Source: Candidatus Nomurabacteria bacterium (GTDB lineage: Bacteria > Patescibacteriota > Minisyncoccia > Phycocordibacterales > UBA918). Taken from it: a stretch of 64,000 nucleotides of DNA. Positions 16,749-60,271 of the stretch are shown one piece after another (the stretch's first letter is position 1; every line of letters starts with the position of its first letter). The position numbers and the translations under genes are program-made. The notes under the pieces were generated by a model. The model was given only the letters and a program-made list of their open reading frames with translations, did no database searches and had not been told where the DNA came from. Location: assembly GCA_020632075.1 (NCBI GenBank), contig JACKGH010000001.1:42133-106132 (forward strand), read 5' to 3'.

Positions 16749-17018
16749 ATGAAAGAATCAGTCAAGAAAGGAGTAGTGCGGCGGCTTAAGATCGCTGAAG
16801 GTCAGGTGCGTGGTCTTCAAAAGATGGTTGACGAAGATGCATACTGTATCGACATTATCACCCAAGCGTCGGCCGTTCGACACCTACTCAGTGCTGTGGA
16901 GGATCTGATGCTCGAAAATCACCTCGGGGAACATGTGGTCCACCAAATGCAAAAGGGGCAAGACAAAAAAGCTACTGAGGAGATCATGAAAGTATTTAAG
17001 GTAGGTAAAAAAAGATAG
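16749..17018 (+). CDS. csoR: CsoR/RcnR-family metal-sensing repressor.
   Basis: RLKIAEGQVRGLQKMVDEDAYCIDIITQASAV...H...H is the CsoR fold signature with Cys/His ligands. Confidence 0.75.
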   Translation: MKESVKKGVVRRLKIAEGQVRGLQKMVDEDAYCIDIITQASAVRHLLSAVEDLMLENHLGEHVVHQMQKGQDKKATEEIMKVFKVGKKR

Positions 17019-17020
17019 GT

Positions 17021-19057
17021 ATGGATCACTCTCATCACAACCACGAACATCATCACTGTCATAACCATGAACCTACACATCATGGGCATGGTGATCACAG
17101 CATGGGTCACGGTTCGGCTCAGACATTCTTACGTCGCTTCTGGATCGTTACCTTTCTCCTCATACCACTCGTGTTTGCCAACGAGATGGTCATGCATGCG
17201 TTTGGATTTCAAGCGTATACACTAAGTAAATGGATCGGTTTTGGCATTGCTACGGTTATCTTTGGGTTTGCACTTATATTCTTTCAGCATGCGCTACACG
17301 AAATAAAAGCTCGCAAGTACGGCATGATGACACTCGTCTCGCTAGCGGTTGGAGCGGGGTATCTTTTCTCTGTAGCCGCCACTTTTATCCCATCGCTTCA
17401 TGCTGACTTCTATCTTGAAATCTCGACTTTAATCTGGGTGCTTCTCTTTGGACACTATCTTGAAGCAAAGTCTGGAGCGGTGGCCGGTAATGCGCTTCAA
17501 GAAGTAGCTAAGTTGTTACCAAAACAAGCACATAAATTATTTAACGGGGTCGAGGAAGATGTAGATATTACTGAGCTTAATGAGAACGACCAAGTACTCG
17601 TTAAACCCGGTGAGAAGATTCCGGCTGACGGAACGATTGTCTCTGGTTCAGCCAACGTTGATGAAGCACTCATTAGCGGTGAATCGAAACCAGTCCATAA
17701 AGGTGTGGGAGACGAAGTTGTGGCCGGTTCTATCTGTCTTGATGGTTCGCTGGCCGTCAAGCTCTCTCGGGTCGGTGAGCACTCAACCATCGGACAAATT
17801 CAAAAACTGATCGCAGAAGCACAACAGACAAAACCAAATTCACAACGAATCGCCGATAAAGCGGCTGCGGTACTCACATTTGTTGCTGGTATCACTGCAC
17901 TTCTCACCATCCTCGTGTGGTCGCTACTACTTGGTGAAACCTTTACTTTTGCCATCACACTCGCCATCACAGTGCTCGTTATTGCCTGTCCTCATGCACT
18001 CGGGCTTGCTATCCCTACCGTCACCACCATTACCACCTCGCTCGCAGTCAAAAACGGCTTCTTTATCAAGAATCTCGCTAAAATTGAAGTCATCAGAAAA
18101 ACAGACTACGTGGTGTTTGATAAGACCGGCACACTCACCACTGGAGTCTTTGGTGTGACTGACATTGTTCCATTTGGTGGAAAAACAAAAGATCAGATAC
18201 TCAAAATTGCCGCGTCTCTTGAACAGCACTCATCTCACATTATTGGTCAGTCGATCGTTGCATATGCCAGAGAGGAGCGTATTAGGTTTGAGGAAATTGC
18301 GGAGTTTAAAAATATTGCTGGGAAAGGCATTAAGGCCAAATTGAATAGTCAGCTCTACATTGTCGGAAACAAGACGATCATTGAGGACACTAAGATTCCA
18401 CTCGGTGAAGTTGGAAATGAATACACAAAATTAGCTTCCAAAGGAAAAACCACCATCTTTGTTGCGGACGGAGAAAGCGTTGTTGGTCTGATTGCTCTAT
18501 CGGACACTATAAAACCAGAATCGTACAAGACAGTTAGAAAACTTCACGATATGGATGTGAAAGTGGCTATGCTCACGGGCGACAACAAGGAAGTAGCTAA
18601 GGGTGTGGCAGAGGAACTTGGTATCGACACTTTCTTTGCTGAGGTACTACCAGAAGACAAGTACTCACACATCAAATCACTACAAGCCGATGGCAATGTG
18701 GTTTTGATGGTTGGTGATGGGGTAAATGATGCTCCGGCCCTCACTCAAGCCGATGCTGGCATTGCAATCGGAGCTGGTACTGATGTGGCGGTTGAAGCTG
18801 GTGACGTAGTACTGACACAGAGCAATCCTGAAGACATCGTGAAGCTTATTACGCTCTCTAAAAGGGTCTATGGCAAGATGATTCAGAATCTTGTTTGGGC
18901 ACTTGGATACAACATCATTGCAATTCCAGCTGCTGCGGGTATGTTCGCATACTGGGGCTTTTTTCTTCGACCAGAGATCGGGGCGTTTGTCATGAGTCTC
19001 TCAACGGTTATTGTGGTTGCTAATGCTATGCTCCTCAAACGGGTTAATTTACGCTAA
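17021..19057 (+). CDS. copA: Copper-translocating P1B-type ATPase with a His-rich N-terminal metal-binding tail.
   Basis: CPH (IACPHALGLA), DKTGTLT, GDGVNDAP and TGES motifs, plus an N-terminal HSHHNHEHHHCHNHEPTHHGHGDH. Confidence 0.9.
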   Translation: MDHSHHNHEHHHCHNHEPTHHGHGDHSMGHGSAQTFLRRFWIVTFLLIPLVFANEMVMHAFGFQAYTLSKWIGFGIATVIFGFALIFFQHALHEIKARKYGMMTLVSLAVGAGYLFSVAATFIPSLHADFYLEISTLIWVLLFGHYLEAKSGAVAGNALQEVAKLLPKQAHKLFNGVEEDVDITELNENDQVLVKPGEKIPADGTIVSGSANVDEALISGESKPVHKGVGDEVVAGSICLDGSLAVKLSRVGEHSTIGQIQKLIAEAQQTKPNSQRIADKAAAVLTFVAGITALLTILVWSLLLGETFTFAITLAITVLVIACPHALGLAIPTVTTITTSLAVKNGFFIKNLAKIEVIRKTDYVVFDKTGTLTTGVFGVTDIVPFGGKTKDQILKIAASLEQHSSHIIGQSIVAYAREERIRFEEIAEFKNIAGKGIKAKLNSQLYIVGNKTIIEDTKIPLGEVGNEYTKLASKGKTTIFVADGESVVGLIALSDTIKPESYKTVRKLHDMDVKVAMLTGDNKEVAKGVAEELGIDTFFAEVLPEDKYSHIKSLQADGNVVLMVGDGVNDAPALTQADAGIAIGAGTDVAVEAGDVVLTQSNPEDIVKLITLSKRVYGKMIQNLVWALGYNIIAIPAAAGMFAYWGFFLRPEIGAFVMSLSTVIVVANAMLLKRVNLR

Positions 19058-19066
19058 AATAATCAC

Positions 19067-19486
19067 ATGAAATTTGGAAGACTGTGGAAGTTACATAAAG
19101 CCATCTGGGTAGTCATTACCGCTATGTTTGTATCTGTGCTCTTTCTCAGTCTCTTTCAGATGCCGATGGGTATGGATATGACCACGGGCGCTTCGGGGTG
19201 TCCTTTTATGTCTCACGGTGAGGAGGTCTTGTGTTCCATGAACACACTTGAACATCTGTCTGCCTGGCAGTCTGCTTTTACTGCTATCGTCCCTACCTTT
19301 GGTCTTTTAACACTTACGGTAGTGAGTATTTTGTTGCTGGCTTCAGTCGCCCCCAATCTACTTTCCACACCTCGCTTCAGTGAGCCATCATCGCCACGAT
19401 ATCTACGCGAGCAGATATACACCTTTAGCTACCGGCCGCTCCAAGAACTGTTTTCAAGCGGCATCCTACACCCGAAGCTTTTCTAG
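19067..19486 (+). CDS. Hypothetical membrane protein in the cop operon.
   Basis: Follows copA by 10 nt, carries 2-3 TM helices and a CPFMSH motif. A terminator hairpin follows at 19497-19525. Confidence 0.45.
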   Translation: MKFGRLWKLHKAIWVVITAMFVSVLFLSLFQMPMGMDMTTGASGCPFMSHGEEVLCSMNTLEHLSAWQSAFTAIVPTFGLLTLTVVSILLLASVAPNLLSTPRFSEPSSPRYLREQIYTFSYRPLQELFSSGILHPKLF

Positions 19487-19532
19487 TTAACTAATTCCAA
19501 CAACAGGCCTTTTTCTGTTGTTTTATTAGTTA

Positions 19533-20414
19533 ATGAGAAAAGTAACGATGAATAACAAAACTATAGTAATTGCCGTGTTTGTGCTTCTCCTTGGTGGACT
19601 AGCCTACTACACCGTTGGCTACAACCGCCACACGGACTCGAGCGACAGTCACGAAGCTATGATGGGTGCCCACGACGATGGCACCATCGAACCATATGAA
19701 ATCTACCCAGGTGATGTTGCTGAAAAAATTAAGAACAATGACAACATTGTCTTGCTTGACGTGCGAACACCTGAAGAATATGCCGAAAATCACCTCAAGG
19801 GTGCACTACTGCTTCCGGTACAAGAACTCTCACAGCAGTCACTGAATGCAATCGGACTCGGCGAAAACGCAAAAGACAAGGAGATCTACCTCTACTGTCG
19901 TAGCGGCAGTCGGAGTCAGACGGCGTATAACATCATGCGCTCGCTCGGGTACACCAACATTAAAAGTGTGGCTGGTGGTATGATCCACTGGGAAGAAGAC
20001 AACTACCCATTTACTGAGTCAGGTGTATACGAAGGAAATCAAATGATGAACGGTGAGACTATGATGCCGGACGATGCTACTGGCCCTCACATTACCTTTA
20101 ATCAAACCAGTCACGACTTTGGGGTTATTCCGCAATACGGTGGCAAGGTTGAAACGACCTTCACGGTCACAAATACCGGCAAAGAGACGTTACAGATTGG
20201 CGACCTAACGACGAGCTGCAGCTGTACGAGCGCAATGATCGCGGAAACCTCTATTGAACCCGGTAAAAGTACAACTCTGACAGTGGTGTTCGATCCAAAC
20301 TTCCACGAGGAACCGCTTGATGTCTTTAAACGTACCGTCTTTATTCCTACCAACGACCCCCGAAATCCTGAAGCAGAAGTCTCAATCACTGTCGATATTG
20401 CAGAGGGTCAGTAA
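19533..20414 (+). CDS. Rhodanese-domain protein with a C-terminal DUF1573-like beta-sandwich domain.
   Basis: N-terminal TM, a rhodanese core LLDVRTPEEYAENHLKGA...YCRSGSRS (active-site Cys), then FGVIPQYGGKVETTFTVTNTGKETLQIGDLTTSCSCT. Confidence 0.65.
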   Translation: MRKVTMNNKTIVIAVFVLLLGGLAYYTVGYNRHTDSSDSHEAMMGAHDDGTIEPYEIYPGDVAEKIKNNDNIVLLDVRTPEEYAENHLKGALLLPVQELSQQSLNAIGLGENAKDKEIYLYCRSGSRSQTAYNIMRSLGYTNIKSVAGGMIHWEEDNYPFTESGVYEGNQMMNGETMMPDDATGPHITFNQTSHDFGVIPQYGGKVETTFTVTNTGKETLQIGDLTTSCSCTSAMIAETSIEPGKSTTLTVVFDPNFHEEPLDVFKRTVFIPTNDPRNPEAEVSITVDIAEGQ

Positions 20415-20420
20415 TCATTA

Positions 20421-20921
20421 ATGAAAATAATACCTATGAACAAATACACTATTGGTGCGATCTTGCTGGGAACCATTCTGTTGCTGGTAATGGTCTCGAC
20501 CCAGAGCAACAACGCTGGACAAGCAGCCACCAAACAATCAGCCACATCTATCATCACTGTTACGGGAGACAAATATGACTTCGGTACAATTGATATCTTT
20601 GGCGGCAAAGTACATACAACTTACATGCTCAAAAATGAAGGACCCGATGATGTCACTATCACCAACGCCCAAACGAGCTGTATGTGTACCGAAGGCGAAA
20701 TAGACGGTTATACATTCGGTATGCATGGTAGTAACGTGCACAACATTGTCATCCCGGCCGGTGCAGAAAAAGAAGTGACCGCCACCTTCGACCCACTCGC
20801 TCATGGTCCGAATGGTACCGGTAAGATCACTCGAGAATTGGTCCTTAAGACCAACTCCACTGCTTCACCGGAAGTACGAATGATGTTCAATGGAGACGTC
20901 GCTAAAAATGAAAACAATTAA
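20421..20921 (+). CDS. DUF1573-like secreted protein.
   Basis: Signal/TM followed by YDFGTIDIFGGKVHTTYMLKNEGPDDVTITNAQTSCMCT, a paralog of the upstream C-terminal domain. Confidence 0.55.
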   Translation: MKIIPMNKYTIGAILLGTILLLVMVSTQSNNAGQAATKQSATSIITVTGDKYDFGTIDIFGGKVHTTYMLKNEGPDDVTITNAQTSCMCTEGEIDGYTFGMHGSNVHNIVIPAGAEKEVTATFDPLAHGPNGTGKITRELVLKTNSTASPEVRMMFNGDVAKNENN

Positions 20922-21321
20922 TCAGAAAAAACCTATGCAATACGGCTATTCAAAACAAGTAGCGCTACCCTTTACGGAAGCGGTGACAAAAACTAAAGAC
21001 GCACTGGCAGTGGAAGGTTTCGGGGTGCTCACTGAGATTAATGTTGCTGCCACGCTGAAGAAAAAACTCGATATTAATTTCAATCAGTACGTCATATTTG
21101 GTGCGTGTAACCCGGCGTTTGCCCACCAAGCACTCGAGGCAGAACCAGAGATTGGTCTACTACTTCCGTGCAACGTAATTGTTTACGAGCGCGACGGCAG
21201 TGTGCATGTCTCCGCCATTCTGCCAACGGTCGCCATGCAAATGGTTAAAAACGACTCATTACACGAAATCGCAACTGCAGTTGAAGCAAAGCTTAAAACT
21301 GTTGTTGACGCAATCGCATAA
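20908..21321 (+). CDS. DUF302-family protein.
   Basis: YGYSKQVALPFTEAVTKTKDALAVEGFGVLTEINVAATLKK...ILPTVAMQM is typical of DUF302. Confidence 0.55.
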   Translation: MKTINQKKPMQYGYSKQVALPFTEAVTKTKDALAVEGFGVLTEINVAATLKKKLDINFNQYVIFGACNPAFAHQALEAEPEIGLLLPCNVIVYERDGSVHVSAILPTVAMQMVKNDSLHEIATAVEAKLKTVVDAIA

Positions 21322-21326
21322 ACCTA

Positions 21327-22090
21327 TGAATGAAGAACAACAAACAACCAAAGTTACCGCTATGCCAGTAAGGACAAATTACCTCATTCCGCTTTCGATC
21401 GTAATCGCCGGGGCACTCATTGGGGCTGGACTTTATTTCAGTGGCAGCGCCACGTCATCAACTGTTCAAGCAAATAAAGCAGCTGTGGCTACTCCGCAAC
21501 CAGCCGTTGAGCAAGGTTCACCAGAGAAAGTAAATCCAGTTACCGCAACCGATCATATCAAAGGTTCACCTGATGCAGCGGTAAAGATTGTTGAGTATTC
21601 GGACTTTGAATGTCCATTCTGCAAACGTTTCCACGACACCATGAATCAGATAATGGAACAGTATGGCAATTCGGATGACGTAGCGTGGGTATACCGCCAC
21701 TTTCCACTTGACCAACTACATAGCAAAGCGCGACCAGTTGCAGTGGCATCTGAGTGTGCTAATGAGCAAGGTGGCAACGATACGTTCTGGAAATTTACTG
21801 ATCGTTACTTTGCACTTACCAAGTCGAATAATCAGACCGATATTCAAACCGTAATCCCGCAGATTGTAAATGAACTTGGTCTTAATACCACTGCTTTTCA
21901 AAGTTGTTTCGAAAGTGGAAAGTATGATGACCATATCCAGGCCGATGTACAGAACGCTATTGATACTGGTGGGCGTGGCACCCCATGGAGTATTGTCATT
22001 GCTCCAAATGGAAAGACCTTTCCACTGAATGGAGCGCTGCCACTCGAAGCCGTAAAGCAATTGATCGAACTGGCAAAGAAAGAACAATAA
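21327..22090 (+). CDS. DsbA-like thioredoxin-fold thiol:disulfide oxidoreductase, membrane-anchored.
   Basis: N-terminal TM, then KIVEYSDFECPFCKRFH containing a CxxC. It is a paralog of 58953..59711. Confidence 0.75.
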
Positions 22091-22093
22091 GCA

Positions 22094-22654
22094 ATGCTGC
22101 GAACACTCGGTACAGTCTTTAAACAACCACGGTATATACTCGTAGCGACACTCGTTGCGGTGAGTGTATTCGTGTTTGCAGTCTGGTTACCAAATGTCAG
22201 TTTGATAGCTTCTGTTCTTACGTCAAATGTGGGTACCTCTGCGGAGAAGGTGACTTTTCTGTTTAGCCTATTAGGCTCACTTACTACCAACTTCACGGTT
22301 CTATCTGCTGGTACGACCATTGTGGTGGCGATACTCTTTGGTATGAATGTCGCATTACTTCTGTACTACATCCAGAAAGTTAGAGTTAGAACATCAAGCA
22401 TTAGCTCCTTTAGTGGTATGGGTGTAGCTGGTGTCATAAGTGGCTTCTTGGGGGTCGGGTGTGCAGCATGCGGAACCTTTATCTTAAGTTCCGTACTGGT
22501 GCTGATTGGAGCTGGTGGAATATTAGTATACTTACCATTCGGAGGAAAAGAATTCGGAGTCATTGGTATTGCTCTACTGTTAGTAAACATTCACCAGTTA
22601 CTTAAAAAGATCAATACCAGTCTTACCTGTGAGACAAATTTATTTAGGAAGTGA
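22094..22654 (+). CDS. Four-TM membrane protein with an intramembrane CxxC (GVGCAACG) and a C-terminal Cys; conserved partner of the DsbA-like gene.
   Basis: Four hydrophobic helices, GFLGVGCAACGTFIL, and C-terminal TSLTCETN. It is a paralog of 59717..60271. Confidence 0.5.
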   Translation: MLRTLGTVFKQPRYILVATLVAVSVFVFAVWLPNVSLIASVLTSNVGTSAEKVTFLFSLLGSLTTNFTVLSAGTTIVVAILFGMNVALLLYYIQKVRVRTSSISSFSGMGVAGVISGFLGVGCAACGTFILSSVLVLIGAGGILVYLPFGGKEFGVIGIALLLVNIHQLLKKINTSLTCETNLFRK

Positions 22655-22671
22655 ATTAGAAAGATAAAATT

Positions 22672-24306
22672 ATGAAACGACTACTCATTATTATTGTGGC
22701 TGTGTTACTTTTAGGTGCTGCGTTTTGGTACCTGAATCAAAATGACACGATTACTACCAGCCACCTAGATACAACTGGTTACAATAACATTCAATCTGCT
22801 AGTGATTTAACGAAACTCACTGACGAACAGGTGGCAACTGTCCGCCCTACTGAAGTAGTGGAACTAAAAGACGGTGATACTTATAACTTAACTGCTTCGA
22901 TTGTGAAGCAAGAGGTTGGTAATCGAGAGGTAAAACGATTGGCATACAATGGGCAAATCCCAGGGCCAATCCTTAAAGCACCAAAAGGATCAACTGTAAC
23001 CATTAACTTTACCAATAACATCGACATGCCAACCGCGCTGCACTCACATGGCATTCGAGGTGATTACAAAATGGACGGCGCAGCACCACTCTCACAAGAC
23101 CCTATTCCGGTTGGTGGAACCTTCACGTATAAAATCACCTTCCCTGACACTGGTGTGTTTTGGTATCATCCGCACGTTCGAGAAGACTACCAGCAAGACA
23201 TGGGTCTCTATGGGAACATGGTCGTAACGGAACCTGGCTACTGGAATGATGTCGATCAAGAAGAATATCTAATCGTCGATGATGTACTCGAAAATGGTGA
23301 CTATAGTCCGACAATTGTCACCAACACCATGATGGGTCGTTTTGGTGACACGCTACTCATTAACGACCAAACAAATTACACACTTACGGTAAAACAAGGT
23401 CAGATAACACGACTTAACTTCACCAACGTAGCCAACACACGTACTTTTGATTTGTCGCTCACAGGCGCTGAAGTAAAAATGGTTGGTGGTGATATAGGTA
23501 GAATTGAAAAAGAGAAAATGGTTGACGATGTCATTATTGCGCCGGCCGAACGGTATGTTGTTGAGGTCTTCTATAAAGATTCGGGCACGTATGCCATCCT
23601 GCATCGTGGTAAGAAAATCGGTACGGTAGTAGTAGAGCCAAGCTCTGAAAATAAACAGGCACAATTTGCAGTCTTGGCTGAACATGCGGCGGATTACTCA
23701 GACATTCGCACAAATCAAACAGCACTACTCGCCAAGGCACCGGATAAACGTCTCCGTCTTGATGTAGACTTGATGGGACAGATGGGTGACATGATGTCAG
23801 GCGGAATGATGGATAACAACAACGAAGCACTGCGGGAACACTGTAAGCTCATGCCCGAAATGCATGGTTGCGAGCAGTTCACTACAGAGAATGGTGGTGA
23901 GCCTGGAGCTGGTATTGAGTGGGAAGATGATATGGCAATGATGAATAGGGTGAGCACAGACAAAAACACAACCTGGATCATTGAAGATCAAGATACCAAA
24001 AAACAAAACGAGGATATTAACTGGTCCTTCAAACAAGGCGACCTGGTAAAAGTACGCATTTACAACGACGAAAAAGGCGAACACCCAATGCAACATCCAA
24101 TTCACTTTCATGGACAACGTTTTGTTGTTCTGGCACGTAATGGACAGTTGAATGACGACTTGCAATGGAAAGACACGGTCCTGATTCCAAAGGGTCAGAC
24201 AGTCGATCTTCTAGTTGACATGAGTAATCCAGGAGAATGGATGGCACATTGTCACATTGCAGAACACTTGCACTCAGGGATGATGTTCCAGTTTAAGGTT
24301 GAGTAA
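22672..24306 (+). CDS. Multicopper oxidase (CopA/CueO/laccase-like).
   Basis: Signal peptide plus four Cu-binding motifs HSHG, WYHPH, HPIHFHG and HCHIAEHLHSGM. Confidence 0.85.
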   Translation: MKRLLIIIVAVLLLGAAFWYLNQNDTITTSHLDTTGYNNIQSASDLTKLTDEQVATVRPTEVVELKDGDTYNLTASIVKQEVGNREVKRLAYNGQIPGPILKAPKGSTVTINFTNNIDMPTALHSHGIRGDYKMDGAAPLSQDPIPVGGTFTYKITFPDTGVFWYHPHVREDYQQDMGLYGNMVVTEPGYWNDVDQEEYLIVDDVLENGDYSPTIVTNTMMGRFGDTLLINDQTNYTLTVKQGQITRLNFTNVANTRTFDLSLTGAEVKMVGGDIGRIEKEKMVDDVIIAPAERYVVEVFYKDSGTYAILHRGKKIGTVVVEPSSENKQAQFAVLAEHAADYSDIRTNQTALLAKAPDKRLRLDVDLMGQMGDMMSGGMMDNNNEALREHCKLMPEMHGCEQFTTENGGEPGAGIEWEDDMAMMNRVSTDKNTTWIIEDQDTKKQNEDINWSFKQGDLVKVRIYNDEKGEHPMQHPIHFHGQRFVVLARNGQLNDDLQWKDTVLIPKGQTVDLLVDMSNPGEWMAHCHIAEHLHSGMMFQFKVE

Positions 24307-24422: not shown

Positions 24423-25868
24423 ATGAGTGAGTTGTATGCACAAACATTAAAGTATTTTCACCTTGCAATCACGGAATTCTTACCGACTCTTAGAGAGTTG
24501 TGTGATAACGTAACAGATGCCACCGTAAGAGAAGAGATAGAAGATTTAATTGAGGCATATGAAGATATTGATGCCAAGATAGAATCTCATGGTCTTAATT
24601 ACGATGACCCTAATCGTTCTTACGATGGAGAGCCTGATGAGATCAAAATTGATATCCCAGACGAAATGATTAAAAACTTGGCTCGTCTTTCTCATCGGCT
24701 ACTCTTTGCTTGGAAAAAACGACTTGTAAAACTTCAAAGAAAAACATATCTCACTGACGCTAACAAGGACGAAATTTACAAACTAGAGAATCTAATCTGG
24801 CCAATAGAGGCTTTACTGAAGGCTGAGTCTTATGTTCTGGGCAAATACGCTAATCTAGGTCCTTTGACTTTTCCTGGGGAAACCTCTGATCATGAAGGTG
24901 GAGTGACAAAAAGACTACATGATTTGCTTGAGCAGATTCATTCTTGTTACTCCTTGGGTGATGCAGGAGTTCTAGAGGGACAGCGTTTATCTGACACAGA
25001 AGAGCATGTGAGAACACAAATGACAGAAATTGCAGACGCTGTTGGTAACGAGGTTTTTCAGTTAAAGGTTAAAAAGCTTAACTCTGGATGGAGAACTATG
25101 CTGAAGAGTGGTTTTCATAATAGAAAGACGGCCGAATCTAAGCTTGCTGAGTGGGAGTCAATAATTAATGACATCTTGAAAAATCTTCATCCAGTAGATT
25201 CAGTTGAAAATATTGTAAAGACAATTAAGAATCGTCTAAAAACCGAAGACTTATTTGTTGAGAGTCGGTCTCAGGATGAAGACCAACATCTCCTTATAGG
25301 TAAAAGGGATGGTAGTCCAGAAAAGGCCCATCTGATCATTGACGGAAAGACCGGCGAGATCCGTGTTGAGGACAATCAGCAAGAACCAACTGAATTGATC
25401 AGTAAGATTGAATCGGTTCTCACACTACGTGATGGTAGAAAAATCAGATCAACACGGGAGTCTCTAGAAGAGATTTCAGATCACGATGCAAAACGACCAA
25501 AATTAGATTTGGAGACAAATTTTTCGGTTTCTGGAAGCAGTGCCGGAAACTTCCTAAAGTTTAAAGTTAAAAACGATGGAGAGGAATCTGCTGTTGATGT
25601 TAAAGCCATTTTTGTAGCCGATGGAGAAGAGGTGGAGAAAATTAGCGTTGCACACAGCATTTCACCAACACAATGTAGTCCTGAAATAAACTATCGTTAC
25701 ACAGATACAATGCTCTTTAATAGTCAGATATCTGATGCGAGAGTAAAATTTGAATACAAGGATCGCGCTGGCAATACTTACTTGTCAGGACGGAAACTCA
25801 TTCAAAATGATCGTGCTGACGGAAGATTTAATATACAAAGTAGACCCGGTGACTATTTTGAAGAATAG
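24423..25868 (+). CDS. Hypothetical protein (481 aa), acidic, no recognised domains.
   Basis: Long AT-rich ORF. It is convergent with the recombinase gene and overlaps it by 16 bp. Confidence 0.5.
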   Translation: MSELYAQTLKYFHLAITEFLPTLRELCDNVTDATVREEIEDLIEAYEDIDAKIESHGLNYDDPNRSYDGEPDEIKIDIPDEMIKNLARLSHRLLFAWKKRLVKLQRKTYLTDANKDEIYKLENLIWPIEALLKAESYVLGKYANLGPLTFPGETSDHEGGVTKRLHDLLEQIHSCYSLGDAGVLEGQRLSDTEEHVRTQMTEIADAVGNEVFQLKVKKLNSGWRTMLKSGFHNRKTAESKLAEWESIINDILKNLHPVDSVENIVKTIKNRLKTEDLFVESRSQDEDQHLLIGKRDGSPEKAHLIIDGKTGEIRVEDNQQEPTELISKIESVLTLRDGRKIRSTRESLEEISDHDAKRPKLDLETNFSVSGSSAGNFLKFKVKNDGEESAVDVKAIFVADGEEVEKISVAHSISPTQCSPEINYRYTDTMLFNSQISDARVKFEYKDRAGNTYLSGRKLIQNDRADGRFNIQSRPGDYFEE

Positions 25869-27196
25869 ATGTTGATTTGCTTATCTTGTAGCACAAGTTT
25901 GCTTTTTAAACAGCCCAGTAACTCTCGTTTTTCATAAATTGGTCTCTTTCTTAGAATGTGCTTAGCGTAATTCCGTATATCAATATCTCTCACACTCACT
26001 TTAGTTGAATCTTCTCCTAACACTGATTTCTGGAACTCATTGTGTGCTTCTAGCTCGGCTTTGATACGATCTTTCATACCAATTTCATCGAGTGAGATTG
26101 TGTCGAGTAGTTGCGCTAGTTGCTCAATCAAATCTTCTTCTCTGATGTAGCCACACTTACAGTGTTTATCGTGGAATTTGCTACAACCGTAGTAGACGTA
26201 GCGATGTGTATTGCCGTTTTTCTGTGTCTTGAATTTTTCGTCAGCGCTTATGGTCGAACCGCAGAGTCCGCAACTAATCATCTTAGTGAAGGCGAATTCT
26301 TTGTTTTGAGTTCTTACTACGTGTTCGTTGGTGAGTCTGTTTTGAACTGCCTTGTACAACTCTTTTGAAATTATTGGGTCATGTTTACCTTTGTACCAGT
26401 TACCGCTACCTTTTGGATACTCAAATTCTCCATAATAGAAGGTGTTTTTGAGGATGATATACACGTTGCTAAGCGTGAGTGGTTTTCCGTTCTTTGTTGC
26501 AAACCCTAAGTCGTCCCGAAGCCAGTGGAATATCTTTCGTCCAGACCAGCCATTGTATGCGACCTTCTCAAATATTTGTTTGATGACGTCTGCTCGTTGT
26601 TCATCAATAATCACTTCGCATTTTCGATTCCTGTCAGGATGATTGAGGTATCCAGTCGGTGCGACTGCGGGCCACAGTCCCATTTCACACCGTGCCTTGA
26701 GACCTCGCTTCACATTGACCACCTTGTTGTCATTCTCAAGCTTCGCCTGTGACCCAAGGATCATGAGAAGGAATTTTTCGTTCGGATTGTTCGTGAATCG
26801 TTGTCCGAAGGTGCGGATTTCGTGCAACAATCCTTGGTCCATGAGATCGACGACCGATCCGAGATCTCCTGCGTTACGGGAGAGACGGTCTGGTGCCCAG
26901 GTCAAAATACCGTTAAACTTGCCACTCCTGATCTCAGCAAGTAGCTCGTTGTATATGGGTCGCTGACCAACCTCTTTCGAGGAATGTGATTCACGTTTGA
27001 TTTCAGTAACGTTGAGTTGCTCACGGGAGGCAAGATCAAGCATCTCCCGTACCTGTGATTCGATCGAGAGGGCTTGTTTATCCTCCTGTTCCGTTGATTT
27101 TCGTGCGTAGAGGCAGTACCTGACGGTTGTTTGTACCTCCACTTTTTTCTCTGTCACCAGAGCGTTGCTTGCGTATGTCTCCATTACCACAATCAA
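25853..27196 (-). CDS. Large serine recombinase (phage integrase-type).
   Basis: Resolvase catalytic domain YCLYARKSTEQED...SIESQ, a recombinase domain, and a zinc ribbon CGLCGS...YYGCSKFHDKHCKCG. Confidence 0.85.
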   Translation of the reverse strand: MIVVMETYASNALVTEKKVEVQTTVRYCLYARKSTEQEDKQALSIESQVREMLDLASREQLNVTEIKRESHSSKEVGQRPIYNELLAEIRSGKFNGILTWAPDRLSRNAGDLGSVVDLMDQGLLHEIRTFGQRFTNNPNEKFLLMILGSQAKLENDNKVVNVKRGLKARCEMGLWPAVAPTGYLNHPDRNRKCEVIIDEQRADVIKQIFEKVAYNGWSGRKIFHWLRDDLGFATKNGKPLTLSNVYIILKNTFYYGEFEYPKGSGNWYKGKHDPIISKELYKAVQNRLTNEHVVRTQNKEFAFTKMISCGLCGSTISADEKFKTQKNGNTHRYVYYGCSKFHDKHCKCGYIREEDLIEQLAQLLDTISLDEIGMKDRIKAELEAHNEFQKSVLGEDSTKVSVRDIDIRNYAKHILRKRPIYEKRELLGCLKSKLVLQDKQINIYSSK

Positions 27197-41865: not shown

Positions 41866-43194
41866 ATGGAGTATCTCAAACCAAAACACTACTACACTGA
41901 CCTCTACGATAAACATACAGTCGAACGCTGTCGTCGTATTGAAAGTACGAATAGCATGCCTGATGCAGATCGCCCGAAGAAAGTCAGTAAGAAAGAAGCT
42001 GAAGCAATCAACGACTGGGCACACAACCTCATCCTTACCTTTGAGAAAGGGTCTCGCTGGTCCAATAAAGAAAAGACCATTAATGATTGGATGGAGAGAG
42101 ATAGAAGACGAGACGAGCTATTAGAATCAGCCAAAGCGCCAGAAGATATCCGCTGCCTCACGTGTCGTAATCGTATGGAACCTAATCACCGACAGCTTTG
42201 GCACGGTGATGAAGATAAGCCAGATCGTGTCCTCTTTATGTATGACTGCCCGAACCAGTGTCTTCCACGGCGGGCATTTTTTGATGATGGTAAGGAATGG
42301 CGCAGTACCCCACACCTCTGTGCTCGTTGTGGCAATCCAACCAATCACACGGTCTCTGATGACAAAGAGAAAATGGTCACAACGTACACTTGTCCAACTT
42401 GTCATCATGTTGAAGTTGATGAGTACGTCTGGAATAAGCCAGAAGATGAATACGATGAACACTTCGCGACGGATCGTGATCGATTCTGTGTTTCAGATGA
42501 AGAAGGGAGAAATATAGAAGACATGAAATGGCAAATGGAGCGCATGGGTGACTTTGCTAAGGAGTGGGAAGAGAAAGAAAAAGCTCGTGCCAAGAAACTA
42601 GAGGAGAACCCAAAAGGATTTCACCTTGAGGGTGCTGGCTATACTTGTTCGATTTGTCGCAATAGTACCCCTGCAGGAGACAACTGGTACGATAAATGGG
42701 GTATCAAATGTCTAGTGTGTCAGTGGTCCATTGATCATAAAGAAATACCAGCCTCACTCGCCAAGAATGAGGATAGCTGGTATCGAAAGTATGACTTTGA
42801 ACACTATTTTAATGTGAAGGGTCAGACGCTCAATAAATGGGTTAGAGAAGGTCTGGTAAAAGCTCGAACGGTGAGTCGTTACGGTGAAGGTGTGCATACG
42901 CAAGTATTCCTTGTCAAAGATAACAAGGATTTCCTGCCTCCTAAGAAGTTACTTGAATCAAAGCGGGGTCGAGTTGTAGAGAATGGCAAAGAGGAGGTGC
43001 GAATACTGCCTTGGTACTGCTTTGGTGATCCGCACGAAATATTGAAAGGATACAAGATCATGGATTATTTACGAGTACTGTCTCCAGAAGAGGTAGAACA
43101 ACGAGAGAAAGAACGTCAGGAGAAAGCGGAGAAACGCAGACTGCATCGTGAGAAAGTAAAAGCTGCTAGAGAGAAGCGCAAGAAGCGTAAATGA
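41866..43194 (+). CDS. Multi-zinc-ribbon protein with a Lys/Arg-rich C-terminal tail.
   Basis: Three CxxC...CxxC pairs (CLTCRN...CPNQC; CARCGN...CPTCHH; CSICRN...CLVCQW), a GGA-rich RBS, and a tail EKRRLHREKVKAAREKRKKRK. Confidence 0.55.
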   Translation: MEYLKPKHYYTDLYDKHTVERCRRIESTNSMPDADRPKKVSKKEAEAINDWAHNLILTFEKGSRWSNKEKTINDWMERDRRRDELLESAKAPEDIRCLTCRNRMEPNHRQLWHGDEDKPDRVLFMYDCPNQCLPRRAFFDDGKEWRSTPHLCARCGNPTNHTVSDDKEKMVTTYTCPTCHHVEVDEYVWNKPEDEYDEHFATDRDRFCVSDEEGRNIEDMKWQMERMGDFAKEWEEKEKARAKKLEENPKGFHLEGAGYTCSICRNSTPAGDNWYDKWGIKCLVCQWSIDHKEIPASLAKNEDSWYRKYDFEHYFNVKGQTLNKWVREGLVKARTVSRYGEGVHTQVFLVKDNKDFLPPKKLLESKRGRVVENGKEEVRILPWYCFGDPHEILKGYKIMDYLRVLSPEEVEQREKERQEKAEKRRLHREKVKAAREKRKKRK

Positions 43195-56362: not shown

Positions 56363-56581
56363 TTGGTATACTATTTTCATATGGAACCTCATTGGCAGAT
56401 CATCGTGTTTTCACTGCTTGTGGTCGACAGTGTCGGTGCGATCATTATGTCGTGGTGCGGTCGCCGCTGGTGGATACACAACCTAGGTGTGTTCGCTGAA
56501 TATTTTCCGCCTGCCAAAGGTTGGTCAGCGCTATACTTTTTGCTCGTGCTGGTGATAGGTCACTTACTTGGCCTGTACTAA
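56363..56581 (+). CDS. Small hypothetical membrane protein.
   Basis: Two TM helices; weak evidence. Confidence 0.3.
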   Translation: MVYYFHMEPHWQIIVFSLLVVDSVGAIIMSWCGRRWWIHNLGVFAEYFPPAKGWSALYFLLVLVIGHLLGLY

Positions 56582-58809
56582 GGTACGAGACACTCAAGCC
56601 CAAGTTCGATCCGATCGGCAACAATATCGTAGCCAAAGTCATTTGGGTGCACTAAGTCACTCATGAGGAACGGATTGCCGAAGATGTTTTTATAAATGTC
56701 TGGAATGAAAACAGAACCAGTGTCGCTCGCGACATCTTCGTAGGCTGCATACACAGTGTCGTTGAAGAGGTAATTATCAAAACCAACCACGATCGTGTTC
56801 GCACCAGTTTCTTGAATTTGATCCACGATCGATCGTAGGTTTGTAAACGTCTGTGCTTGAGTAAGGAGTGGTACCGATTGCCAGTCGTAGCCGAGTCGGT
56901 CTGCGATCGCGTCAAGCTCGCTGGTCAGTTCGCGATCGACCGCAGTTTCGCTTAGCGCTTCGTAGACACGACGGATCTCATCATTACCACCTAGAAAGAC
57001 GATCACTGTGCTTGGTGACTTGCTCAGCACATCGGCAGTGAGTCGCTCGAGCGCATCTTGGGTTGTGTCTCCAGAGACGCCAGCATTAATGATGTTGATC
57101 CCTAAGTTCTTCTCAAGCTCATCAACGTAGTTTTGGCCAGGCGTGGCGCCAATACCGTAGGTGATGCTATCGCCGAGTGCGATCACCGGGCCGCTGCCAG
57201 TCGGGTAATTGGTTATCTGACTCAGGTCAAAACCGTTACAGTTTTCGGGATTGAATGTAACTGAGAATGGTTCTGAAGTGGCGACCTTCGTGTAGGAATT
57301 CTTTTTGAATAATCGAAACTCAAAGGTTCCTTCAGTGTTCAATGGGAACTGTTCTCGGTACGACAGAGTGTCGGTGTACTCCCAGTCTAAGTAGCTGCTA
57401 TCCGAAGATCCTACGGTGTATAGTCCGATCCAGTCAAGCAGGGAATAAGGTCCGCTCCAAACAGCATCGGCTATTTCACCAAAGTCGTATGAGGTTTTGT
57501 CCGGTTCAACACTGTATATTGTGACCGGCGGCGGATCGTTCGGGTTGTCATTCGCAGTGACCAAAAAACTATTTGAGATGGCAACTCGTTTGTAACTATT
57601 GTTCTTGAAGTAGCGAAACTCGAATTCTCCAGTATTCGGCAGTGCAAATGATAGCTCTCCAGTAACACCAGTGACGTATGCCCAGCTGCTGTAGCTGTAG
57701 TCTGAGGCTCCTAACTGGTACAGTCCGATCCAGTCTTGAGTCAAGCTGTCGCTGGTGTCAGTTTCCCAGCTTACGGTTGCAGTCGCACCTTGCGCGTATT
57801 CAGTGTCATCGGTGCTTAGTGTGTACGCATTGTTGTTATCATTTGGGTCTGGTGCAGTGACAGTGAAGTTTTCTGAGGTGGCAACGCGTTCATATCCGTT
57901 ATTCTTGAAGTATCGTATTTCGAATGTGCCGATCTGTGGGAGATTGAAGGATTTTTCTCCGGTTGCACTGGTAATGTACGCCCAGTCTTGGTAACTGTAA
58001 TCGGTTGTGTCGACAGCGTACAGTCCGATCCAGTCATTGGTTAGATTATCGTCTGCGTCAGCATCCCAGGCCACTGTCACGGTGTCACCTTGTGTAAAGC
58101 TGGTGTCGTTTACGGTGAGGGAGTAGCCGGGAGTGCTATCGTCCCCATCATCAGAATCATCCGCCTCAGTCACAGTGATCGTGTCTGAAGTCGCGACATC
58201 AGTGTAGCTATTGTCGATAAGATAGCGGAATTCGTACGTTCCGGGTGTGTTGATGGTGAAAGTCTTGCTGCCGTCGGTGGTGTTGGTGTAGGCCCAATCG
58301 CTATAGGAGGTGTTGCTGCTGTCTACACCGTACAGTCCGATCCAGTCATAGGTCACATCTGTGGTCCCAGTGACTTCCCAGCTTACTGTCACTTGTTTAC
58401 CTGCTGCGACAGTGCCTGCATCGGTAGAAAGGATATACGTCACTTCTGGATCAGTCGTGATCGTGAATGCTTCTGAGGTAGCAACAAGTTCGAATCCTGC
58501 ATTTGTAAACAATCGGAGTTCGTAGGTGCCAGGAACTCCCTCGTACAAGATGAGCGACCCTTCGGTGGCAGTCGATAAGTATGACCAGCTACGGTACTGA
58601 GTATTGGCCGAGTCAACTTTATAGATACCGACCCAGTCGCTTGCATTGTGATCTGCTGGCGCAGTCCAAGAAACAACGATCGATTCATTGGGAGAGTAGT
58701 TCGTGGCGTTTGGGGCGACAGTATAAGTTGCTGCACTCACTAAAATTGGCGACAGCAGTAGCACTTCCAACAAGCCTAGAAATGAGTTTCGTAGGACGTT
58801 CATATACAC
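56578..58809 (-). CDS. Secreted protein with five to six tandem ~100-aa beta-domain repeats and a C-terminal SGNH/GDSL hydrolase domain.
   Basis: Signal peptide; repeats of the form DWIGLYxVDSSNTSYxDWAYT...GTYEFRYFKNNSY..VATS; a C-terminal VIALGDSITYG...GGNDE...DxxH (SGNH). Confidence 0.65.
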   Translation of the reverse strand: MYMNVLRNSFLGLLEVLLLSPILVSAATYTVAPNATNYSPNESIVVSWTAPADHNASDWVGIYKVDSANTQYRSWSYLSTATEGSLILYEGVPGTYELRLFTNAGFELVATSEAFTITTDPEVTYILSTDAGTVAAGKQVTVSWEVTGTTDVTYDWIGLYGVDSSNTSYSDWAYTNTTDGSKTFTINTPGTYEFRYLIDNSYTDVATSDTITVTEADDSDDGDDSTPGYSLTVNDTSFTQGDTVTVAWDADADDNLTNDWIGLYAVDTTDYSYQDWAYITSATGEKSFNLPQIGTFEIRYFKNNGYERVATSENFTVTAPDPNDNNNAYTLSTDDTEYAQGATATVSWETDTSDSLTQDWIGLYQLGASDYSYSSWAYVTGVTGELSFALPNTGEFEFRYFKNNSYKRVAISNSFLVTANDNPNDPPPVTIYSVEPDKTSYDFGEIADAVWSGPYSLLDWIGLYTVGSSDSSYLDWEYTDTLSYREQFPLNTEGTFEFRLFKKNSYTKVATSEPFSVTFNPENCNGFDLSQITNYPTGSGPVIALGDSITYGIGATPGQNYVDELEKNLGINIINAGVSGDTTQDALERLTADVLSKSPSTVIVFLGGNDEIRRVYEALSETAVDRELTSELDAIADRLGYDWQSVPLLTQAQTFTNLRSIVDQIQETGANTIVVGFDNYLFNDTVYAAYEDVASDTGSVFIPDIYKNIFGNPFLMSDLVHPNDFGYDIVADRIELGLECLVP

Positions 58810-58952: not shown

Positions 58953-59711
58953 ATGTCAGACCAAACAGTACAATCAACGCAACCTCACACGCAGCAAAGC
59001 ACGCTAATGAAAGATCTTATGATCCCGGTTTCGATCATCATTGCTGGTGGCTTTATTGGCGCTGGACTTTACTTTGGTGGTGGCCAAGCAAGCTCTACTG
59101 GTGTTGCTGCACCAACTCAGGCAGCTGAAGCTGATGATAAGACTAGTTTGGTCAATCCAGTGACTGCCGCAGACCATATTCGTGGCAGTCTCGAAGCGCC
59201 GGTGAAGATCATCGAGTTTTCTGACTATGACTGTCCATTCTGTACGCGGTACCACACGGCAATGCAGGAGATCACAAGTAAGTATTCCGGTGATGAAGTG
59301 GCGTGGGTATACCGTCATTTTCCGCTTGAGCAACTTCATCCACAGGCAGCTGCTGTCGCTCTTGCTTCAGAATGTGTCGCTGAGCTCGGTGGTAATGATG
59401 CGTTCTGGGAATTCACAGATAGCTATATGACAGCTCGTGGCAGTGGCGATAAAACTGCACACAATGAACTTATTCCAAAGCTGGTTCTCGGAGTTGGTGT
59501 GTCACAGCAAGCATTCACAGAGTGCTACGATAGTGGTCGTCACAACGCAGCAATCCAGGAAGACATGACTGATGCGGTCGAGACCGGTGGTCGCGGTACA
59601 CCATGGAGTATTTTGGTTGGGCCATCTGGCAAGACCTACCCGATCAATGGTGCGCTTCCAGCTGCAACGATCGAGAATCTTATCAAGCTAGCAAAAGAAG
59701 AAGCTTACTAG
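58953..59711 (+). CDS. DsbA-like thioredoxin-fold oxidoreductase (paralog of 21327..22090).
   Basis: KIIEFSDYDCPFCTRYH, with about 55% identity by eye to the upstream paralog. Confidence 0.75.
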   Translation: MSDQTVQSTQPHTQQSTLMKDLMIPVSIIIAGGFIGAGLYFGGGQASSTGVAAPTQAAEADDKTSLVNPVTAADHIRGSLEAPVKIIEFSDYDCPFCTRYHTAMQEITSKYSGDEVAWVYRHFPLEQLHPQAAAVALASECVAELGGNDAFWEFTDSYMTARGSGDKTAHNELIPKLVLGVGVSQQAFTECYDSGRHNAAIQEDMTDAVETGGRGTPWSILVGPSGKTYPINGALPAATIENLIKLAKEEAY

Positions 59712-59716
59712 AGAGT

Positions 59717-60271
59717 ATGGCGTCCGGAGTTTTGACTCGGGTCTTTCGACATCGAAGGTATGTGTTCGGTGCTGCGTTGGTAGCGTTCGCGGTGTTGACC
59801 GCTGGTGTTATGTTGCCCAATTGGGGTATTTTAGTACAGATACTGTTTTCTGGTTCGATCGGTCTTGGTGCAAAACTTTCCTTTGTCTTTAGTTTGTATG
59901 GTTCGATCTTTACTAACTTCACTGTATTTTCAGCCCTGTATCTATTGCTGATCGCAGTACTGTTTGGGATCAATGTTGGCATTTTGACATTCTACATTCG
60001 TCGACGGCAGACCAAGCGCACCGAAGGTGCGGCGGCGCATCTGGCGAGTATTGGAGGGATTGTGAGTGCGATGCTTGGGATTGGCTGTGCGGCGTGTGGC
60101 TCGGTAGTGATCACAGCAGTACTTGGTTTATTTGGTGCTACTGGATTGCTGCTCCTGCTACCGTTTCATGGAATCGAGTTTGGTGTGCTTGGTCTGATCT
60201 TGCTTATCGTATCGATCAGATATTTGATGCGGCGGATCAATGATCCAATCGTTTGTCCAACTAAGTACTAA
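59717..60271 (+). CDS. Four-TM CxxC membrane partner (paralog of 22094..22654).
   Basis: GIGCAACGSVVI and C-terminal DPIVCPTKY, in the same arrangement after the DsbA-like gene. Confidence 0.5.
   Translation: MASGVLTRVFRHRRYVFGAALVAFAVLTAGVMLPNWGILVQILFSGSIGLGAKLSFVFSLYGSIFTNFTVFSALYLLLIAVLFGINVGILTFYIRRRQTKRTEGAAAHLASIGGIVSAMLGIGCAACGSVVITAVLGLFGATGLLLLLPFHGIEFGVLGLILLIVSIRYLMRRINDPIVCPTKY

Follow-up and report, generated by a model that had tools for sequence, protein, structure and literature searches.

Two gene pairs of the same design are encoded in a 64 kb window (positions 42,133 to 106,132 of contig JACKGH010000001.1, assembly GCA_020632075.1) of the ~1 Mb genome of a Candidatus Nomurabacteria bacterium, a member of the Candidate Phyla Radiation (CPR, or Patescibacteria). 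Each pair consists of a gene for a membrane-anchored DsbA-like oxidoreductase and, directly downstream, a gene for a small protein with four predicted transmembrane (TM) helices from an unnamed family, here called MP. The first pair comprises DsbA1 (21326-22090, 254 aa) and MP1 (22094-22654, 186 aa), separated by 3 nt, and the second comprises their paralogs DsbA2 (58953-59711, 252 aa) and MP2 (59717-60271, 184 aa), separated by 5 nt. All four genes are on the + strand, and both copies have the same order, a CPFC motif in the DsbA-like protein, and a G(V/I)GCAACG motif plus a C-terminal cysteine in MP, as the original prediction, made from the sequence alone, had described. The locations of the pairs also agree with it, except that the ATG of DsbA1 is at 21326 and not at 21327. 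A mechanically called open reading frame (ORF) for MP2 begins at 59603 and overlaps DsbA2 by 109 nt; this start is probably not genuine, and comparison with the rest of the family points to the ATG at 59717.

The similarity between the pairs is far beyond chance, with 52% identity between DsbA1 and DsbA2 (E 1e-94) and 42% between MP1 and MP2 (E 5e-47). MP1 and DsbA1 are, however, much closer to proteins of other genomes, with 78% and 93% identity to their respective closest relatives. By these sequence comparisons the two pairs are old, diverged paralogs and not the product of a recent duplication. The pair is thus duplicated, as had been proposed, in the sense that two homologous copies exist, and not in the sense of a recent copying event.

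The upstream genes have the features of the DsbA family, namely a thioredoxin fold into which a helical domain is inserted, a CPxC active site, a cis-proline loop and an extracytoplasmic location. Both proteins match the Pfam domains Thioredoxin_4 (PF13462; 78 bits for DsbA1 and 62 bits for DsbA2) and DSBA (PF01323; 66 and 48 bits). Each score exceeds its cut-off, and the E-values for DsbA1 are 1e-21 and 5.6e-18, which bears out the earlier assignment as DsbA-like. DsbA1 has an N-terminal TM anchor at about residues 18-39, the CPFC active site at residues 96-99 (nt 21611-21622), an extra cysteine pair (C144/C194) and a GTPW cis-proline loop. DsbA2 has the same anchor and loop, with CPFC at residues 94-97 and the extra pair at C141/C191. 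Relatives in the PDB are all DsbA-like. The solved structure nearest to DsbA1 is that of PaDsbA2 (4n30), where both of the extra cysteines align, and other near solved relatives are Wolbachia alpha-DsbA1, MdbA and BdbD. PaDsbA2, alpha-DsbA1 and MdbA share with the window proteins the Thioredoxin_4/DSBA fold and a second, non-catalytic cysteine pair at aligned positions; the active site of PaDsbA2 is identical to that of DsbA1 (CPFC), and MdbA is likewise membrane-anchored. PaDsbA2 is strongly oxidising, and DsbB is able to re-oxidise it (PMC3870256). Whereas these three characterized proteins are recycled by DsbB or VKOR, the window DsbAs adjoin an unrelated membrane family. An MdbA-like oxidoreductase family is enriched in CPR bacteria, and VKOR is its third most frequent gene neighbour, the first two not being named (Méheust et al. 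2019, PMC6744442).

A second group of DsbA-like proteins relevant here is that of the ScsC type. ScsC structures match DsbA1 weakly (E ~1e-5), and a Pfam scan did not find the ScsC_N domain in DsbA1 or DsbA2. The ScsC_N oligomerisation domain is present, however, in proteobacterial DsbA partners of MP. This domain is typical of ScsC-type proteins involved in copper tolerance, which must remain reduced and are shielded from DsbB (PMC11634996).

MP1 and MP2 each contain exactly three cysteines, two in the G(V/I)GCAACG motif and one near the C-terminus (7 residues from the end in MP1 and 4 in MP2). The CAAC motif occupies residues 123-126 of MP1 (nt 22460-22471), in the third helix (TM3), and the last cysteine is C179 (nt 22628-22630); the corresponding residues of MP2 are 124-127 and C180. 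Conservation was computed from 242-308 sequences. C123, C126 and C179 are ~100% conserved, as are P148, G151 and E153, which are placed in the outer loop of MP1. Exactly three cysteines occur in 78% of members, the dipeptide within the CxxC motif is AA in 79% and AS in 14%, and the second CxxC cysteine and the last cysteine lie 53 residues apart in 81% of sequences.

The topology of MP was deduced from several kinds of evidence. AlphaFold2 (AF2) placed helices at residues 12-43, 49-66, 69-99, 107-137, 141-146 and 152-174 (two models, each with four long helices and with predicted local distance difference test (pLDDT) scores of 77 and 81). Positive charge is strongly asymmetric, with a mean number of lysines plus arginines of 2.5 in the N-terminus, ~4 in the loop 94-108 and 3.3 in the C-terminal tail, and 0.35 in the outer loop 138-155. 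Mean-field direct coupling analysis (DCA), at a modest depth (Meff 269), recovered an antiparallel arrangement of TM1 and TM2 (couplings 14-91, 22-83 and 28-76) and a parallel arrangement of TM2 and TM4 (70-156, 74-155, 85-165 and 92-169), and the latter implies that the C-terminus is on the same side as the N-terminus. Also used for topology were lysine- and arginine-rich C-terminal extensions in some members and a C-terminal S-adenosylmethionine (SAM) methyltransferase in one. Together these support well a model with four TM helices and both termini inside, which would place the CAAC motif within TM3 and the last cysteine on the cytoplasmic face. Couplings 38-130 and 120-154 suggest that CAAC is close to E153 and in the outer half of the membrane. 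With good support, the motif is thus predicted to lie within TM3, level with the mid-plane or slightly to its outer side, under an outer vestibule of P33/N34, T65/N66 and E153, and C179 is most likely cytoplasmic. This model is in accord with the initial description of a four-TM protein whose CAAC lies within the membrane and whose C-terminal cysteine is conserved.

Searches for relatives of known function were negative. A profile built from 33 members recovered 1,736 representatives of 50% identity clusters at E<=1e-3, of which 1,106 passed E<=1e-10; almost all are 170-200 aa long. MP1 and MP2 have no match in Pfam (2025 copy, E<=1) or in NCBIfam (June 2026). When 55 diverse members were scanned singly against Pfam (E<=10), no family recurred, and DsbB, VKOR, MauE, DsbD and Mer were absent among the families listed (25 of 48). 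PDB sequences gave no real match to the family profile; a TetR protein at E 1.6 was rejected as spurious. Profile comparisons with hhalign gave a probability of 0.4% for DsbB (CPR and E. coli), 1.6% for CcdA (19 columns, confined to a G-x-G-V-G-C stretch) and 8% for MerC (12 columns around a common GCAAC only). No fold match of MP to DsbB, VKOR or MauE was found, and no internal 2+2 repeat was detected. Neither DsbA-MP nor VKOR fusions turned up in the 150 top-ranking relatives of MP and the 120 of DsbA. One ADH fusion of MP was met among the relatives and is probably chimeric, and in a natural-looking protein (P0202, 381 aa) the whole MP domain, including its C-terminal cysteine, is fused to a class I SAM-dependent methyltransferase. 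The searchable literature on DsbA in CPR bacteria/Patescibacteria or on the MP motif yielded no description of the MP family. The earlier statement that the family cannot be named therefore holds, and no match to an unrelated transporter family emerged. As judged from sequence, MP is a large, previously undescribed family of its own and a non-homologous version of a known kind of protein, the membrane partner of DsbA, with an unusual three-cysteine, two-sided layout.

The genes for DsbA and MP form a tightly coupled and widely conserved module, present across hundreds of ultra-small CPR bacteria. One genome per GTDB species was scanned, and 80 loci were kept from 144 relatives; nearly all are from CPR bacteria, a small number bear the labels Alpha- or Betaproteobacteria or Flavobacteriaceae, and the sample is biased to island-type relatives of MP1. 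A DsbA-like gene is directly upstream of MP, on the same strand and with a gap of <150 nt, at 76 of these 80 species loci, so the co-occurrence noted for the two copies in the window extends well beyond it. The other four comprise one locus with an intervening gene, one without upstream sequence and two without DsbA (L070 and L083). DsbA was also upstream at every metagenomic place checked for the members P0018, P0006, P0054, P0059 and the very distant P0251, and a very distant paired member adjoins dnaA/dnaN. A search begun from DsbA homologs found MP downstream in two of two loci. The most remote members (from a DPANN archaeon, and P0245) have no adjacent DsbA.

Some occurrences of the family lie outside the CPR. 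A distant MP homolog with CASC and a C-terminal cysteine is encoded on a Candidatus Diapherotrites contig (L091, 5001-5585) with no adjoining DsbA, so that the family extends to another group of ultra-small episymbionts. The pair itself occurs in an Alphaproteobacteria chromosome (L068, OZ245842.1) and at three further loci (L086, L087 and L063), all labelled Proteobacteria or Flavobacteriaceae, labels that may reflect transfer or binning error. The gene order in the Alphaproteobacteria chromosome is CcdA, a 118-aa cysteine-containing membrane protein, DsbA with ScsC_N, and MP, an Scs-like layout.

Other thiol-redox modules were sought in the window and around the related pairs. When all six frames of the window were scanned for ORFs that combine CxxC or CxC with three or more hydrophobic segments, only the two MPs and one low-complexity ORF were returned, with no DsbB-type motif in a real ORF. 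This is consistent with the initial remark that no DsbB or VKOR homolog is evident in the window, which covers 64 kb of a ~1 Mb genome. The argument from a missing DsbB is nevertheless weak, because CPR bacteria commonly have VKOR, which is found adjacent to MdbA in this group (PMC6744442). Within 5 kb of the pair, across the 80 loci, MauE was found once and VKOR not at all. A true DsbB occurs in ~10 of the 80 loci (L015, L023, L026, L040, L046, L047, L056, L075, L081 and L088) and in L094 (7324-9264), and each time a CEAC-type DsbA paralog of its own accompanies it. This module comprises the CEAC-DsbA, a SurA_N-like protein encoded on its own, and DsbB, which in some cases carries a fused SurA_N-like chaperone domain. 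Of the DsbAs encoded in front of MP, 67 of 70 have a CPFC active site, and the DsbA beside DsbB has CEAC, so each membrane protein has its own type of DsbA. CcdA is encoded just upstream of the pair at ~6 loci, in most cases together with a small thioredoxin or SCO1/TlpA-like protein of its own. That each membrane redox protein comes with its own thioredoxin-fold partner supports the deduction that MP is the membrane partner of the CPFC DsbA. Neither MerA nor MerP was found in the window or in ~95 related loci, where the neighbours are copper genes.

The genomic settings of the two pairs in the window are distinct. Pair 1 lies within a cluster on the + strand (16749-24306) that encodes, by Pfam, a CsoR repressor (16749-17018), a CopB-type P1B ATPase with a CPH motif and a histidine-rich N-terminus (17021-19057), a membrane-anchored rhodanese-DUF1573 fusion (19533-20414), a DUF1573 protein (20421-20921) and a DUF302 protein (20890-21321), followed by DsbA1, MP1 and a multicopper oxidase (22672-24306). 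Between the ATPase and the rhodanese fusion is a gene for a 139-aa, 2-TM protein without a Pfam match, u138 (19067-19486). Intergenic gaps are 2-46 nt, except for a 32-nt overlap of the DUF1573 and DUF302 ORFs, and scans for promoters and terminators in the island returned nothing above chance. A large serine recombinase (25853-27196, - strand; Pfam Resolvase/Recombinase/Zn_ribbon_recom) is encoded ~1.5 kb downstream of the cluster, beyond a 481-aa ORF, and a recombinase of this family is also encoded alongside the pair at 17 of 80 related loci. The flanking recombinase suggests, and synteny with islands in other CPR lineages (L012, L014 and L095) makes likely, that the copper island is mobile. 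Of 75 sampled loci, ~64 (~85%) have copper or other metal genes, including CsoR, CopB-type ATPases, multicopper oxidases, cupredoxins, DUF305 and DUF3105, no more than 5 kb from the pair, in a sample biased to MP1 relatives. Pair 2 is found among housekeeping genes, in the order GDSL lipase, pair 2 and YceG.

Based on this coupling and on the conserved cysteines, MP is probably a dedicated membrane thiol-redox partner of the CPFC-type DsbA. The direction of electron flow is much less certain, and we tentatively favour a trans-membrane reductive relay over a DsbB-like oxidase or a MerC-like metal relay. DsbA and MP would be co-translated, and MP would act as a thiol relay of three invariant cysteines. 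Reducing equivalents from a cytoplasmic thioredoxin-type donor would enter at C179 and pass via the CAAC disulfide to the extracytoplasmic CPFC of DsbA. DsbA would thereby be held reduced, in a reductase, isomerase or ScsC-like copper-sequestering role, and MP would represent a minimal, non-homologous functional analogue of DsbD, CcdA and ScsB. One copy may have arrived with the CsoR-controlled copper island, while the other would serve a housekeeping function.

A reductive relay is favoured because it is the sole reading that uses the invariant cytoplasmic cysteine, and this cysteine together with an intramembrane CxxC provides the layout that a trans-membrane thiol relay needs. Given the redox potentials of thioredoxin and DsbA, thiol-disulfide exchange is downhill only from the cytoplasm to the outside, which also argues for this direction. 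The copper-island context parallels that of ScsB-ScsC, and the presence of a complete oxidative DsbB module beside some pairs would make the role of MP complementary to that of DsbB. In the proposed relay, MP would resemble CcdA, DsbD and ScsB in having membrane-buried cysteines that exchange with a thioredoxin-fold partner outside and have contact with the cytoplasm, and its G-x-G-V-G-C stretch is locally similar to the TM4 motif of CcdA. The architectures are nonetheless different. CcdA and DsbD (PF02683, PF13386) have 6-8 TM helices with 3+3 pseudo-symmetry, whereas MP has four and no internal repeat, and they carry one cysteine in each of two PCxxP helices, where MP has a CxxC in one helix and one cytoplasmic cysteine. 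CcdA genes, moreover, sometimes stand beside the DsbA-MP pair.

Several observations weigh against a reductive relay. The nearest characterized relatives of DsbA1 (PaDsbA2, Wolbachia DsbA1, MdbA and BdbD) are oxidases, and small CPR genomes need some DsbA oxidase. All reductant conduits known to us (DsbD, CcdA and ScsB) have at least six TM helices and two intramembrane cysteines, against four helices and three cysteines in MP, and a second conduit would be redundant in the ~6 loci with CcdA upstream of the pair. The AF2 confidence is lowest around TM3 (pLDDT 56-72), which makes the depth of CAAC and its distance from C179 uncertain. Finally, redox direction is not a property that can be read from sequence.

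The most serious rival, although we consider it unlikely, is that MP is a non-homologous analogue of DsbB, VKOR or MauE, with CAAC re-oxidising the CPFC of DsbA and being itself re-oxidised by quinone or another oxidant. In its position beside DsbA, MP corresponds to BdbC or VKOR of other bacteria, as in the VKOR-MdbA pairs of the CPR (PMC6744442). Like DsbB, VKOR and MauE, it is a small four-TM bundle whose N- and C-termini are both inside, its gene adjoins that of a DsbA-type protein, and it bears a redox-type cysteine motif in or at a TM helix; the DsbB topology of four helices and cytoplasmic termini was recovered for MP by AF2, positive-inside counts and DCA alike. MauE was recently described as a third DsbA oxidase in which a single cysteine motif (CXC) can suffice, with further pathways remaining to be found (bioRxiv 10.64898/2026.03.05.709764, March 2026 preprint), and this precedent would accommodate the one motif of MP. 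Its partner DsbA belongs to the extra-disulfide, highly oxidising subclass, and the housekeeping copies beside dnaA or YceG are found in tiny genomes that need an oxidase. The absence of VKOR within 5 kb of the pair at the 80 loci also fits, and the neighbouring CcdA at ~6 loci would be complementary to an oxidase and not redundant.

An oxidase, however, leaves the 100% invariant cytoplasmic cysteine without a role, since no quinone-coupled oxidase needs one. DsbB (PF02600) has two essential periplasmic cysteine pairs, a CxxC at the end of a TM helix and a second pair in a loop, whereas the three cysteines of MP are the CxxC in TM3 and the predicted cytoplasmic one, with no shuttle pair in the outer loop. 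A bona fide DsbB with its own CEAC-DsbA coexists with MP in ~10 of 80 related loci, and the proteobacterial partners carry ScsC_N, a domain characteristic of proteins protected from oxidases. MP has no sequence or fold similarity to the three oxidases. Specifically, it shows neither homology to VKOR (PF07884) nor the VKOR combination of CxxC and a loop cysteine pair, and it differs from MauE (PF07291) in having C-A-A-C-G where MauE has CXC followed by F-G, with no Pfam match. In addition, CPR bacteria are, to our knowledge, generally without quinone biosynthesis. The suggestion of a DsbB analog in the original prediction is thus upheld in its first part, a dedicated redox partner being probable; re-oxidation as such is not established and is in tension with the cytoplasmic cysteine, the coexisting DsbB and the copper islands.

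That MP is a relay or transporter for thiophilic metals, similar to MerC or MerT, is less probable still. Cu(I), or Hg/Ag, would pass among the CPFC protein, CAAC and the cytoplasmic cysteine, or MP would be the metal effector, with DsbA keeping CAAC reduced. MerC has four TM helices, both termini inside and cytoplasmic C-terminal cysteines. The MerC of Tn21 (its sequence verified at 100% identity in plasmid records) has the same GCAAC in a TM helix, and the MerC, MerT and MerF systems share with MP an outside partner with CxxC and a metal-resistance island context. A metal function would be compatible equally with neighbouring DsbB and CcdA modules, and ~85% of the sampled loci are metal islands. 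The similarity to MerC (PF03203), however, is limited to the 12 residues of the low-probability hhalign match, and MerC carries the motif in TM1, whereas in MP it lies in TM3. No MerA or other mer operon genes were found near MP at any locus, and the partner is a thioredoxin-fold DsbA and not MerP or another HMA-type metal chaperone. Copper import would be of no obvious benefit in a copper-resistance island, and pairs also occur in non-metal, housekeeping settings.

Equally improbable is a non-catalytic MP, acting as scaffold, anchor or assembly factor for DsbA or as a preferred substrate with structural cysteines: the family has no demonstrated function, and its remotest members (the DPANN archaeon, P0245) and two CPR loci (L070 and L083) are without an upstream DsbA, but invariance is focused on the three cysteines, the small-residue CxxC (AA or AS in 93%) and the fixed cysteine spacing, which is typical of catalytic or ligand residues, and DsbA has a TM anchor of its own.

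DsbA recycling in organisms without known partners is an acknowledged gap, for which MP is an abundant candidate of ~185 aa with a fixed partner. On balance, and by a slight margin of confidence, we think that MP founds a new, non-homologous class of DsbA-recycling membrane enzyme, as a fourth type of oxidase alongside DsbB, VKOR and MauE or else as the first conduit for trans-membrane thiol reductant that does not belong to the DsbD/CcdA superfamily, and that it is the main partner of DsbA across much of the CPR, spread on mobile copper islands. If MP is a reductant conduit, a four-helix protein suffices for trans-membrane thiol transfer. If it is an oxidase, the electron acceptor in these largely quinone-less symbionts becomes the question. 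In either direction, thiol redox control of the envelope would be tied to mobile copper-resistance islands in CPR bacteria.

Additional genes recur near the pairs. Homologs of u138 are encoded just upstream of DsbA-MP in 33-38 of 80 species loci. The u138 protein bears cysteine, methionine and histidine in the motif G-C-P-F-M...H..E..L-C-S-M, with the conserved C-terminus YSFSYRPLQELFSSGILHPKLF; it probably handles copper at the membrane and may belong to the DsbA-MP module as a third component. Directly 3' of MP in 11 of 80 loci (e.g. L054, 2171-2764) is a gene for a secreted, very cysteine-rich protein of ~197 aa with CC, CCC and CxC runs and no Pfam match, which may be a substrate or a metal-binding protein. 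Membrane proteins that fuse HMA and DsbD_2 domains, putatively involved in metal handling, are encoded beside the P-type ATPase at four loci (L024, 322-1371; L043, 603-1616; L078, 1905-2918; L094, 1513-2532). In the window itself, the GDSL lipase gene just upstream of pair 2 (56578-58809, - strand) encodes a 743-aa secreted protein with about five tandem immunoglobulin-like repeats, which have weak SKICH/HECW_N Pfam matches, and a C-terminal GDSL lipase/esterase domain.

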